DNA of 32,000 nt. Origin: Coprobacillaceae bacterium. Lineage in GTDB: Bacteria > Bacillota_I > Bacilli_A > Erysipelotrichales > Coprobacillaceae. Below, piece after piece: positions 27,377-31,418 of this stretch. The DNA lies in assembly GCA_963675515.1 (NCBI GenBank), contig OY776328.1:2310001-2342000 (forward strand), given 5' to 3'. A program made the translations under genes and the position numbers. Numbering within the stretch: the first letter of the stretch is position 1; every line of letters begins with the position of its first letter. The notes under the pieces are model-generated. The model was not told where the DNA came from, searched no databases, and saw nothing but the letters and a program-made list of their open reading frames with translations.

Positions 27377-28239
27377 TTAAACTAGATTTTCTCCGTTTGA
27401 TTTCAAAAACTCCTGCATCCAGTAATAGGATGCTTTGAGATACCGATTCTTGCTGCCGTTTCCCAAGTCGTCCATATCGACATAGACAAAACCGTAGCGC
27501 TTTTTCATCTCACCGGTGCTAAGCGAAACCAGATCGATCCCGCCCCACATCGTGTAACCGATTACGGGTATTCCGTCGATTTCGACCGCCTTCTTGATTT
27601 CCTTGAAATGGTCATTCAGGTAATCGATGCGGTACTTATCGTCGACGAAGTTGTTTTCATCGATCTCGTCTATTTCTCCCAGACCGTTTTCAACGATGAA
27701 CAGCGGTTTCTGGTAACGCTCGTACACTTCGTTGAGGACGAACCGGATGCTCATCGGATCGATGCCCCAGCCCCAGTTGGACTGCTTGACATAAGGGTTG
27801 GGATCGAAGCTCATCCCGTAGTGACCAAGATTAGTTTCAGTCGACACTATCGACGAACGGTAACAGCTGAAGGCATAAAAATCCAGGCACCCGTCCTTCA
27901 AGGTCGCAATGTCGTCAGTCTCGATGTCCAGCACGACATTTCGCGACTTTAGAAATGACTTGGCATAGGCCGGATAATAGCCCCTGACCATGACATCGGC
28001 GAAATAGAACAGGTTCCTTCTCTGTTCCACCCAGGCCATCACATCTTCAGGCTTGCAGGTTGCCGGATATGAAGGCGAAGATGCGTACATCGCCCCGAAC
28101 ATCGCCCCGGGAATCATTTCCTTGGCCAATATTTTGGCCTTGGCGCTGGCGACAAAGATATGGTGGATCGCCTGAAGGGTAGTCTGGTCATCGACACTGC
28201 GTACGCCCAGATGCGAGTAACCTGAAAGCGCGTTGACCT
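27377..28239 (-). CDS. GH1 6-phospho-beta-glucosidase C, exon 2 (C-terminal 287 codons)
   Basis: Open frame from 28239: (E)[11 protein letters not shown]...FIVENGLG (nucleophile)...[24 protein letters not shown]. Confidence 0.9.
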
Positions 28240-28288
28240 ATAGCGATAGGTAAGACTTTGATGTTATCTCCATCTTTTCCCCCGCTCC

Positions 28289-28322
28289 ACACCGTGCATG
28301 CGACTTTCACCGCACACGGCGT
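28289..28322 (-). ncRNA. group II intron domain V (copy 2)
   Basis: Identical to the copy 1 domain V. Confidence 0.8.
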
Positions 28323-28338
28323 TCCATCTAATTCTTCT

Positions 28339-30133
28339 TTAATTTATTTCAGTTAAATTACATCTCTTACGCAACATGTTCAGTTTTTTAAGCTGTGTTT
28401 TGTTTAGATTGAACTTTTTCAATAGCGTTTTTTCAGTTTCCTGATTATTACCGTGTATTAGTTTATGTACTTCTTTGTGAATAATGATTAGATTGTCAAA
28501 ATTATCGGTTCCACCATCTCCAACGGAAACAATGTGATGACAGTGTATTTCCTCGGCCGTTAGAAACAACTGGGTGATTCCACAACGCCCTTTTTGCATT
28601 GAATACTTTGAGATTGTGTTATCCCGATATTCCACACTTCCGTTTCCAATTGGCAGTTCCAGCAACCTCTTCATAACTGAGGTTACATTATTTTCTAATC
28701 GTTTATAAACTAATTTGCGCCCCTCTTGGGTATAGTTGCATATGTTTTGATTGAAGTTTGTCTTCAATTTCCACTGCGTATCCGCCAGTGGAAACAATGA
28801 AATGGCTCCAATCGTGAATGTGCGATAGTTATTCTTAAATAACTTCTTATACAACGGTGGGGGACTCCTGGGTACTTCATATTTAGCTATTGGTTTCAAT
28901 CGGTTGTACAAGGTCTTGAGCGTCTGATGGTAAACATTTCTAAAATCTATATTTACATGTGTTGCAGCTTCATAATAATTTCTTATCCCCAGTATATATG
29001 AATTATAATTGTGGATATTCTTGGAAATTGTATGACGCTGTATCTCGATAACTCTTTTCCTTATTTCCGCTTTGATTTTTATTTTACTTTTCGCCGATAC
29101 AAAGGTATTCGCAACGTACTTCTTGCGCTTTGGTACCAGCTTCATTTCAAACCCCAAATAGTCCGACCTACGTTTCCTTAGATTGGTAATCTTTGACTTT
29201 TCAGGTGAAACATTAAGTTTAAGTTCATTCTTCAGATATTCCTTGACCGCATGATATATCCTTACCGCATTTTTATAACTGCAAGTGAAGACTCGTGCGT
29301 CATCGGCATACCTTACCGCATACATTTCTTTTAGATTGGTTTTCTTGAGTACTCTATACTTATATGGACATTTATAATCAGCATTGAATGTTTCCCATTG
29401 ATTGCTTATCCACCAGTCCAGATCGTTCAACACTACGTTTGAAAGTAATGGCGAAAGCACTCCTGCCCTGTGGTGTCCCACAGTGTGGGACACCTACTCC
29501 TTTGATGGGAGCTTTCAGCATTCTACTTATAATCGTCAGTACCTGATTATCCTTGATGCCGATATTCCAAAGTTGTTTGATTAACTTGGTATGATTGACA
29601 TTGTCAAAGAACGATTCGATATCCAAATCAACAACATAGTGATTGTGCGTCATATTGGCGATATGGCAACATCTTGACAAAGCATTATGGGTTGAGCGAT
29701 TGGCTCTAAATCCATATGAATGCTTATGAAACTTCGCTTCGCAGATTGGTTCAAGTATCTGTTTGAACATCTGTTGAATCAGTCTGTCATGCATCGTTGG
29801 TATTCCCAATGGTCGTAATTTTCCATTAGGTTTAGGTATTTCTACTCTTCTTACCGTTTTTGGTTTATAGTCCAATAGCGATAGTCTAATATCCTGAATA
29901 AATTTCTCAACGTTTTCTATCTTGTAATCATCAATAGTAAGGCCGTCAGTGCCTTTTGTGTGACTTCCGGTGTTGCTTTTGATGTTTCGATAGGCGAGGA
30001 GTATATTGTTCCTGGATATCACCAGATTATAAAGATCTATCCCGTAAGTATCATTGTTTAAACTCATTTGATACAACCAGTCAAAAGTTTCCTGCATACT
30101 GTAATATTCGTTGTTTCGTAATCCCGTGCTCAC
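28339..30133 (-). pseudogene. intron-encoded RT/maturase/HNH protein, copy 2, with the same +1 frame break (near 29464)
   Basis: Same two overlapping ORFs as copy 1 (251 aa and 384 aa). There is a single amino-acid difference (V to A in KKYV[V/A]NTF). Confidence 0.85.
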
Positions 30134-30829
30134 CGATGGATTATTCCTTTCGTTTAGAACAATTGTTTCCCATCATCTTATCAGACCCTGTGAGCTTCAT
30201 TTAACTGTAACTGATTTTTAAAGAACCAGACTTGGGGCTATCCCTCCACCATTTTTCGTGGCTTCATCGGTACTGTGCCCCTACTTTCACGAGAATAAAA
30301 ACACTTCGTTTACACTTATAGTTACCGTCCCGATAACAGTCGTTTAATAGACGTTTCTCGCTTACAACGTTCCAAATATTCTAGCTTTACATTTATCCTT
30401 AGGTTCCTGCTATGAGCCTGATGAATTATACCCTCATTGTCGAGTATCTCGAATTTCATATCAACGATTCTTACTTTTCGATATTCACCGTTGCGCACGC
30501 AACATGCCATCTTTCAATAGCACGACTTTCTAGACCCGTACATTCGCAGTTTCGTCAGTCCTTACACGGACATTCTCACCATAGATAATTTATAGCGTCC
30601 CGGCCTATCCTTTACCATATGAAATATCACTTAGGTATTGTTCAGCCGACTTCACCTAGCTTCACACATAATTTTACTGTTATAACCTCATGCGTGTAGG
30701 AGTATCAGACTACTTGTTTCAGGCTAACATGACAGCCATCATTCCAAGTATTGAATATTCAGTTGTGATTTTCCTATTGGAAAATCCTCCCATTTCATGC
30801 CTAGGCACTTATAGGGAAACGTTTCGCAC

Positions 30830-31418
30830 CGTTGAAAGTCAGCCAGTACTTTACCTTGTCTCCGTAATTTTCAAACAGGACCTTGCACAGGCGCAAGTAA
30901 CAATCAATCACCACCCGGCTTGACCAGCCGTCGTATTTGTCCGCGAGGACCACCGGAATCTCATCGTGGCAGATTGTAACCAATGGCTCGATGTTCCATT
31001 TGATGCATTCATCGATGACACCCTGGTAGAAGTCGATCCCTTCCTTGTTTGGTTCAGTCTCCTCACCGGTCGGGAAAATCCGGCTCCAGCAGATGGAAAA
31101 GCGCATCGTGGTCGATCCCATCTTCGCCAACAACTCGATATCCTCCTTGAAGCGGTGGTAGAAGTCTACCGCCTGGTGTGAGGGATAGTAGCGTTTTGGA
31201 TCGATATAGCCAACCGCATCATCAGGGATCGAACCGCGCATCGCCATCGCTCCCGTTGACCCGTCTTTTCTCTTGTAATTCATTTCTCGAGGCTTGTGCA
31301 ATGACCCGTCAGTTACGAAATCGCACGTCAGCAGGCCTCTGTTACCTTCGCCAAAGCCGCCTTCATACTGGAAGTCCGCACTGGCGCTGCCCCATAATAA
31401 ATCTTCAGGAAATCTCAT
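30830..31418 (-). CDS. GH1 6-phospho-beta-glucosidase C, exon 1 (N-terminal 196 codons plus 1 nt)
   Basis: MRFPEDLLWGSASADFQYEGG...MRFSICWSRIFP...KYWLTFN, followed by the G of the Glu codon. RBS is AGGAGG. Confidence 0.9.

Follow-up and report, generated by a model that had tools for sequence, protein, structure and literature searches.

This study concerns a mobile group II intron in a stretch of 32,000 nucleotides, here termed the window, from a Coprobacillaceae bacterium (GenBank assembly GCA_963675515.1, contig OY776328.1, positions 2,310,001 to 2,342,000). On the minus strand of this window, the intron is found in two near-identical copies of 2590 nucleotides (nt) each (8745-11334 and 28240-30829), which are separated by a constant offset of 19495. 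Copy 2, on which our analysis is focused, is a full-length mobile element composed of a ribozyme and, within its domain IV, a gene for an intron-encoded protein (IEP) of the reverse transcriptase (RT)-maturase-HNH type. It interrupts a gene of glycoside hydrolase family 1, termed GH1 C, inside the codon of a catalytic glutamate, and copy 1 is found at the same codon of the paralogue GH1 A. As a mobile group II intron the element is of a known kind; what is unusual is its location in a catalytic codon, its spread among paralogues at two motifs and a conserved frameshift in a protein-coding region that is under selection. Taken as a whole, the data are best explained by an RNA-guided retrohoming intron that has entered GH1 C, that belongs to a lineage which changes its targets and whose IEP is most likely still produced, an interpretation in which we place considerable confidence.

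The identity of both copies is established by their matches to two Rfam models, each of which is covered over its full length. RF02004 (group-II-D1D4-5, 1-201) is matched with 109.5 and 109.8 bits at a gathering score of 34.5, and RF00029 (domains V/VI, 1-77) with 61.6 bits at a gathering score of 40. Both copies begin with GTGCG and end with CTAT. In copy 2, GTGCG is located at 30829-30825 and the terminal CGCTAT ends at 28240, which conforms to the 5' GUGYG and 3' AY boundaries of group II introns, and its domain VI contains a bulged A at a distance of 8 nt from the 3' end, as found in the branch point of these elements. The GC content of copy 2 is 38.4%, compared to 44.7% in the window. A direct comparison shows that the two copies differ only by substitutions at intron positions 207, 320, 342, 873, 1719 and 1723, six in total, in agreement with a first-pass annotation of the sequence, which had placed copy 2 at 28240-30829 and had described it as equal in length to copy 1 and different at six positions.

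28240..30829, minus strand: group II intron copy 2, defined by Rfam matches and by its precise insertion relative to the intron-less allele on L083.
28240..28324, minus strand: domains V and VI of copy 2 (RF00029, 61.6 bits), identical or nearly identical across all copies of the family.
8745..11334, minus strand: intron copy 1 in GH1 A, with the same Rfam matches and, as in copy 2, a frameshift (at 9969).

The genes that harbour the two copies are clearly distinct, as had been claimed, since the spliced product of GH1 A, with a length of 490 amino acids, is only 43.5% identical to that of GH1 C. The joined exons of the latter (589 + 863 = 1452 nt) remain in frame, as also noted before, and encode a protein of 483 residues that matches PF00232 with an E-value of 4.6e-112 and that aligns from end to end with the solved 6-phospho-beta-glucosidases 6wgd, 2xhy and 3qom, where the motif kywMTFNEIN is part of the alignment. 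GH1 C contains both signatures of a GH1 enzyme, WLTFNEVN with the acid/base glutamate and IVENG with the nucleophile, in line with the described roles of these motifs, where the Glu of TFNEP acts as acid/base catalyst (PMC12430181).

30830..31418, minus strand: GH1 C exon 1 (589 nt), with an ATG at 31418 following an AGGAGG ribosome-binding site and ending with TAC TGG CTG ACT TTC AAC G.
27377..28239, minus strand: GH1 C exon 2 (863 nt), starting with AG GTC AAC and containing the nucleophile motif IVENG.
11335..11926, minus strand: GH1 A exon 1 (locus A), located 5' of intron copy 1.
7864..8744, minus strand: GH1 A exon 2 (locus A), located 3' of intron copy 1.
12119..13471, minus strand: GH1 B, an uninterrupted paralogue with the homologous site TTTCTT TCAATG.

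In both interrupted genes the insertion point lies inside the Glu codon of the acid/base motif WLTFNE(V/I)N, with the junction TTC AAC G|AG GTC AAC at locus C and TTC AAC G|AG ATC AAC at locus A. The two loci agree in all 19 nt upstream (TACTGGCTGACTTTCAACG) and in seven of the first eight nt downstream, and beyond the 19 nt the nucleotide identity of GH1 A and GH1 C drops to the background of the two paralogues. The shared insertion point and the counts of identical flanking positions thus coincide with those given in the first-pass annotation. The predicted ligated junctions would read CTGACTTTCAACG|AGGTCAACGCG at locus C and continue with |AGATCAACAAC at locus A.

That the 2590 nt have been inserted into pre-existing genes is evident from a comparison with alleles that lack the intron, which had been proposed earlier and for which orthologues were sought in protein searches with the predicted spliced GH1 products. 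Such alleles were found in relatives for both genes. In case of GH1 C, they are P0134 on L083 (95% amino-acid identity, 483 residues) and P0135 on L084 (84%), in case of GH1 A it is P0254 on L090 (96%, 490 residues), and the lengths of the two spliced products of the window equal those of their intron-less counterparts (483 and 490 residues). The loci are syntenic with the window, with the order GH1-EIIC-HAD around the orthologues of C and GH1 B-GH1 A-NadA-aminotransferase around the orthologue of A. The nucleotide alignments break exactly at the intron ends, at 30830|28239 for C (relative to L083 and L084) and at 11335|8744 for A (relative to L090), and hence define the 2590 nt as clean insertion. 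Neither a target-site duplication nor a deletion was found at the junctions in these alignments. The ratio of nonsynonymous to synonymous substitution rates (dN/dS) of the host genes relative to the intron-less orthologues amounts to 0.056 and 0.032, indicative of strong purifying selection.

The features that guide the intron to its site are two exon-binding sites (EBS), which are complementary to the intron-binding sites (IBS) at the end of the 5' exon.

30830..30841, minus strand: IBS2 (TGACTT, exon -12..-7) directly followed by IBS1 (TCAACG, exon -6..-1), complementary to EBS2 and EBS1.
30523..30528, minus strand: EBS2 (AAGTCG, intron 302-307), pairing with exon -12..-7 with one G-U pair.
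30461-30466, minus strand: EBS1 (CGTTGA, intron 364-369), the exact complement of exon -6..-1, adjoined by a U at intron position 363 (30467).

Together, EBS1 and EBS2 pair with all 12 nt at exon -12..-1, a single G-U pair included. The U at intron position 363 might form a further pair with the A of exon +1. An alternative location of EBS2 at intron positions 178-185, with 8 pairs to exon -14..-7, was rejected, as it falls within a helix that is conserved in the Rfam D1 model and shows no covariation with the target. IIB-type RNAs are characterised by a contiguous IBS2-IBS1 and by EBS3-IBS3 in place of delta-delta'. In the intron of the window, IBS2 and IBS1 adjoin each other and a U precedes EBS1, and EBS3 itself was not located.

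The strongest evidence for this recognition comes from five further copies of the family in public assemblies, which add four further sites and one of which (on L092) is truncated at both ends. The copies at the four sites, which are located in two more GH1 genes and in two insertion sequence (IS) transposase genes, are 94-96% identical to the intron of the window.

L001:4497-7086: IS3-like transposase gene; EBS1 CGTTGT with IBS1 ACAATG, EBS2 ACCAG with IBS2 CTGGT.
L082:3606-6195 and L093:484-3083: two other GH1 genes; EBS1 CTTTGT with IBS1 ACAAAG and ATAAAG, respectively, EBS2 AGTGG with IBS2 CCGCT.
L089:3605-6143: IS66 transposase gene; EBS1 TGTCGT with IBS1 ATGACA, EBS2 ATGCT with IBS2 GGCAT (one G-U pair).

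In each full-length copy both EBS1 and EBS2 are altered to fit the new exon, and this covariation, which extends over five target sequences, provides direct evidence for RNA-guided insertion. The residue at exon +1 is an A at the five readable sites. In L082 and L093 the intron occupies a second conserved GH1 motif, (H/N)RYKE|DIALMAEMG, and the sequenced members thus document a family that has taken two GH1 motifs (NE and YKE), each in more than one paralogue. The sample from which L089 originates (SRR23823845) is also the source of the intron-less GH1 C allele on L083.

The same pairing rules may account for the distribution of the intron among the GH1 genes of the window. Since GH1 A and GH1 C have the same 12-nt IBS2-IBS1 sequence, one intron variant could occupy both. 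In contrast, the site in GH1 B (TTTCTT TCAATG|AGCAAAAT) carries EBS2 mismatches at -10 and -11 (the sites read TGACTTTCAACG|AGGTC in locus C and TTTCTTTCAATG|AGCAA in GH1 B), and these two mismatches plausibly explain why the paralogue is devoid of an intron. The first-pass annotation had attributed the second copy to retrohoming or retrotransposition, with a paralogous site as target and the 19 identical nt as footprint. The former is supported by the empty sites and by the covariation of EBS and IBS, the latter is overstated: only 12 of the 19 positions are base-paired with the intron and, because 18 of the 19 nt are common to the orthologues of GH1 A and GH1 C that lack the intron, the identity mostly reflects conservation of a motif that preceded the insertion. 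A T at exon -8, which matches EBS2 and is found in both invaded alleles where the intron-less orthologues contain A or C, was weighed as a possible sign of co-conversion or of target choice and dismissed as not significant in light of the synonymous divergence of 0.47-0.69 between those orthologues.

The short stretch of identity could also be viewed as homology for an event at the level of DNA, where copy 2 would have originated from a segmental duplication, or from recombination or gene conversion involving paralogous GH1 genes. The 19 identical nt upstream and the seven of eight downstream would offer such homology. In addition, most of the differences between the copies, four of six, recur as polymorphisms elsewhere in the family, a pattern suggestive of exchange among copies. 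However, 19 nt would be very short for RecA-type conversion, the identity ends at a short conserved motif with flanks at the level of divergence of the paralogues, and the insertion point coincides exactly with the splice junction defined by EBS and IBS. Moreover, unrelated targets were reached with matching changes in the EBS, which is explained only by an RNA-guided mechanism, and we thus consider an origin at the DNA level as very improbable. Even more remote, to a degree that is close to negligible, appears an assembly artefact in which a single real copy was placed twice. A repeat of 2.6 kb can confuse short-read assemblies, and no support for such confusion was found here. Instead, the copies differ at six positions and are embedded in distinct unique flanks, both variants of the downstream IEP reading frame, P0014 and P0132, where a single residue is either V or A, are recorded from one contig of 2.88 Mb, and the same kind of insertion is present in independent assemblies (L082 and L093).

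The six differences also inform about the relationship of the two copies. Two of them are singletons, a G at position 342 of copy 2, which probably converts a U-A into a U-G pair, and ACT at position 873 of copy 1, which is synonymous. The remaining four are polymorphisms shared within the family, where copy 2 shows the state of L001 and copy 1 that of L082.

Shared polymorphic intron positions 207, 320, 1719 and 1723: in copy 2/copy 1 at 30623/11128, 30510/11015, 29111/9616 and 29107/9612.

With four of six differences shared with the family, the copies are therefore not simply a parent and its mutated daughter. With a divergence of 0.23% they are recent relatives, and the pattern of their differences suggests either an exchange among copies or an origin from two slightly different donors, any direction of transfer being inferred.

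Outside of the window, the family includes members in various states of preservation. On L092 (4582-7069), truncation at both ends has left intron positions 86-2573 of a copy with 99.6% identity. It abuts a GH1 gene from which the first ~170 codons are missing and, since the two do not meet at the NE site, the locus is a rearranged or decayed one. On L093 (484-4330), the copy has acquired ten insertions of 1 nt, and the GH1 exon downstream of it is broken up into several frames, a consequence of either a decaying pseudogene locus or an assembly region of low quality. The 2.88-Mb source contig itself encodes at least two further diverged or rearranged copies beyond the window, represented by the proteins P0122, P0124, P0376 and P0379. 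In P0124, a translation of domain V is fused to the 3' part of the second IEP reading frame, and P0376 contains GTPQGG followed by an unrelated tail that begins exactly at the frameshift site and that was not located in the DNA sequences examined. No member of the lineage was detected among GTDB representative genomes, where the best match is 71%, nor in viral contigs. A search of JGI metagenomes with the pattern of the frameshift site returned four matches, all of them unrelated, and collections of plasmids and phages contained only partial relatives of ~74%.

A second pronounced feature of the intron, which is not mentioned in the first-pass annotation, concerns its IEP, whose gene is split into two open reading frames (ORFs) in both copies of the window by an inserted A, located at 29464 in copy 2 and at 9969 in copy 1.

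29378..30133, minus strand: IEP reading frame 1 (ORF1, 251 amino acids), containing the RT motifs up to GTPQG followed by an out-of-frame tail of 29 codons; Pfam RVT_1 1-132.
28339..29493, minus strand: IEP reading frame 2 (ORF2, 384 amino acids), containing the rest of the RT (YADD), X/thumb, DNA-binding and HNH regions; Pfam RVT_1 124-204 and HNH.
29464, minus strand: extra A between GGC and GGA (CAG GGC A GGA GUG), a +1 frame break in RT motif 4 (GTPQG|GVLSPLLSN).
29472..29494, minus strand: predicted hairpin of 10 bp (GGUGUCCCAC-ACU-GUGGGACACC; -17.7 kcal/mol), which ends 7 nt before the inserted A.

All domains of the IEP (RVT_1, YADD and HNH) are present and spread over two frames by this one A, whose removal restores a protein of 597 residues with an intact YADD. 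In an alignment with the solved group II RT 7uim, the repaired junction GTPQGGVLSPLLSN lies opposite GTPQGGNLSPLLAN. Intact relatives, with 68-71% identity at the protein and ~75% at the nucleotide level, read CAA GGC GGA ATA at this site, which defines the lesion as insertion of a single nucleotide between GGC and GGA. The same inserted A is found in L001, L082, L089 and L093 and is also reflected in protein clusters, where five of six variants of ORF1 contain the shifted tail and variants of ORF2 start with MGHHRAG...LSPLL. In a set of 5.8 billion protein clusters, no version without the shift was detected above 72% identity. Judged from its distribution in these sequences, the frameshift is not a private decay mutation.

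Both halves of the IEP are under selection. In four lineages that differ by 4-6% of their nucleotides, dN/dS amounts to 0.06-0.15 in the upstream and 0.09-0.16 in the downstream half and exceeds 1 in the wrong frames. The ORFs have accumulated a single 3-nt insertion as sole insertion or deletion, compared to three insertions or deletions of 1 nt in the 700-nt 5' non-coding part. The constraint is specific for the frame, with a change from CAG to CAA just upstream of the site being silent in frame 0 and changes from GTG to ATA and from CTT TCA to CTA TCC on its downstream side being conservative or silent in frame +1. Hence, the site is conserved in diverged relatives and the coding constraint changes frame at its position, as is expected for a programmed +1 shift. 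We thus find it probable that the protein is still made, either by a +1 change of frame at GGC-A-GGA or as two polypeptides.

How this could be accomplished is suggested by elements next to the site. The sequence AAAGGAG-UAG-GUG, which together with the hairpin covers 29472-29506 (9977-10011 in copy 1), places a GUG in the frame of ORF2 within the 5' arm of the hairpin, and AAAGGAG and GUG could possibly serve as ribosome-binding site and start codon of ORF2. Both the hairpin and AAAGGAG-UAG-GUG are specific to the lineage and absent from the intact relatives L002-L005. It is conceivable that the RT/maturase is made exclusively by obligatory recoding, either by a +1 shift next to the hairpin or as a two-piece RT where a GUG-started ORF2 is coupled to ORF1, and for this specific proposal we regard the chances as evenly balanced. 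The predicted product of a +1 shift would span CGTPQGGVLSPLLSN, and the predicted start peptide of ORF2 would be (f)M-SHTVGHHRAGVLSPLL. A recognised shift-prone motif was not found at GGC-A-GGA, where codon reasoning indicates that a slip from GGC to GCA gives no re-pairing. Literature searches on programmed frameshifting in intron-encoded proteins yielded no relevant report and none on a two-piece arrangement.

Several observations weigh against our interpretation. The frame of the IEP is broken in both copies and, if this break were not bypassed, a maturase would be missing in cis, which could inactivate both GH1 genes. A +1 shift at a hungry codon is unsupported because AGG is not rare in the host, where it is found with 5.2 per 1000 codons in genes of the window and eight times in the IEP and is thus as common as other Arg codons. 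Additionally, the four shared polymorphisms leave a simple donor model, from A to C or from C to A, incomplete, and copies of the family elsewhere are truncated or degraded (L092 and L093). These properties could be reconciled if the introns were dead passengers that have lost their maturase and do not splice, with GH1 A and GH1 C being recent pseudogenes in a cell that uses GH1 B and other glycosidases. The division of the IEP into ORFs of 251 and 384 residues in both copies and the state of the relatives on L092 and L093 would be in line with such a scenario, as would the described inactivity of most bacterial group II intron copies (PMC4424553). It is, however, difficult to reconcile with a single frameshift that is common to copies diverged by 4-6% of their nucleotides and with the low dN/dS of both IEP halves (0.06-0.16), which have acquired no further frame-breaking insertions or deletions. 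Likewise, the ribozyme motifs and both sets of exons are intact, and the presence of near-identical copies at two sites and of retargeted ones at others implies that the intron still moved once the frameshift had arisen. Consequently, we regard the dead-passenger scenario as unlikely, and continue to favour a mobile intron whose IEP is produced despite the altered frame.

With respect to its classification, our best guess is that the intron belongs to class B of the Zimmerly scheme, based on the presence of an endonuclease (En) domain of the HNH type, its relatives in Firmicutes, the contiguous IBS2-IBS1 and the lack of closeness to either LtrA (ML) or the T.el4h RT of PDB entry 6me0, which we take to be of class CL. 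Introns of classes C-F do not contain an En domain and class B is confined to Firmicutes and associated with IIB-type RNA (PMC4424553). The intron resembles those mobile group II introns of bacteria that encode an RT-X-D-En protein and use target-primed reverse transcription for retrohoming, such as Ll.LtrB of Lactococcus lactis (PMC4424553), in its GUGYG and AY ends, its organisation into domains I-VI with an RT-YADD-HNH ORF in domain IV, the pairing of EBS1/EBS2 with IBS1/IBS2 and the precise insertion without target-site duplication. It differs in the contiguous, IIB-like arrangement of IBS2 and IBS1, in an IEP that is interrupted by a conserved +1 shift and in its host, which for Ll.LtrB is a plasmid relaxase gene and here are chromosomal genes of sugar catabolism that are interrupted at a catalytic codon. 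The match of LtrA to the IEP is restricted to the RT region (E-value 2e-39). The closest relatives with an intact ORF are found in Erysipelotrichales bacterium A81 (L002), in Erysipelotrichaceae HCN-30851 (L003) and in the IepA intron of Clostridium perfringens (L004, P0011). Along the entire 2.6 kb they are ~75% identical in nucleotides, and their proteins are 68-71% identical. They also share an identical domain V and the same ends but, unlike the intron of the window, they read CAA/CAG GGC/GGT GGN ATH in one frame and lack the inserted A, the hairpin and AAAGGAG-UAG-GUG.

Two other systems offer informative parallels. Group II introns of the cyanobacterium Thermosynechococcus elongatus have reportedly proliferated within one genome by diverging in their target specificity, with EBS changes that fit the targets and some copies residing in conserved genes. 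In the family described here, the targets are instead motifs of the GH1 multigene family and IS elements, and all sequenced members are frameshifted. Programmed frameshifts are known to limit the enzyme output of mobile elements, by -1 shifts in IS3 and IS1 and by +1 shifts in Ty1 and Ty3. These elements have in common with the IEP an enzyme encoded in two overlapping frames, a conserved shift site and a selection that switches frame. In contrast to them, the site in the IEP is not accompanied by a recognised slippery or hungry motif and the only candidate for a stimulator is the upstream hairpin.

In the mechanism that we propose, the intron would have entered GH1 C by RNA-guided reverse splicing followed by target-primed reverse transcription at G|AG, inside the glutamate codon of WLTFNEVN. 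The invasion of GH1 A and GH1 C would have proceeded via their common IBS2-IBS1, leaving the mismatched GH1 B empty, and the lineage would have retargeted by changes in EBS1 and EBS2 to colonise at least two GH1 motifs (NE and YKE) in several paralogues and genes of IS transposases. The production of either enzyme would presently require removal of the intron from the pre-mRNA, where splicing would rejoin G and AG to restore the Glu codon, and the two GH1 genes would thus depend on the same ribozyme, as the first-pass annotation had proposed. The IEP would most likely be produced from its two overlapping frames, by one of the two routes described above.

Bacterial group II introns usually reside in other mobile DNA, outside of genes that are needed by the cell (PMC4424553). 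Here, one lineage occupies the codon of the catalytic glutamate in two chromosomal genes of sugar utilisation and a second GH1 motif in other genomes, thus illustrating that the conserved motifs of a multigene family can serve as ready-made set of homing sites. The expression of several paralogues would in such case hinge on a single ribozyme. The family also offers natural examples of retargeting through changes in EBS1 and EBS2. If the IEP is indeed recoded or split, this would bear on the question of how such elements limit their own activity, and a throttled output of the protein might be what lets the intron live in catalytic GH1 codons and spread through GH1 paralogues. In the same case, annotation pipelines could err when they dismiss an intron protein as dead because it is 'frameshifted'. 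Literature searches for GH1 or 6-phospho-beta-glucosidase genes interrupted by a group II intron retrieved nothing relevant.

The surroundings of the intron copies are those of a chromosomal stretch of sugar-utilisation genes. Besides the GH1 genes, the window encodes lacAB-type isomerases, a ROK kinase, DeoR and RpiR regulators, a GH4 protein, EIIC and EIIB components of the phosphotransferase system (PTS), a phosphofructokinase, a fumarase, NadA and a class-V aminotransferase (Aminotran_5). Neither tRNA genes nor Rfam families other than the intron were found in the window.

26044-27363: PTS EIIC gene, which follows GH1 C exon 2.
31442-31475, minus strand: terminator-like hairpin of 14 pairs with a T-run, located between the upstream ORF and the ribosome-binding site of GH1 C.

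The latter could be either the terminator of the upstream gene or a regulatory attenuator.

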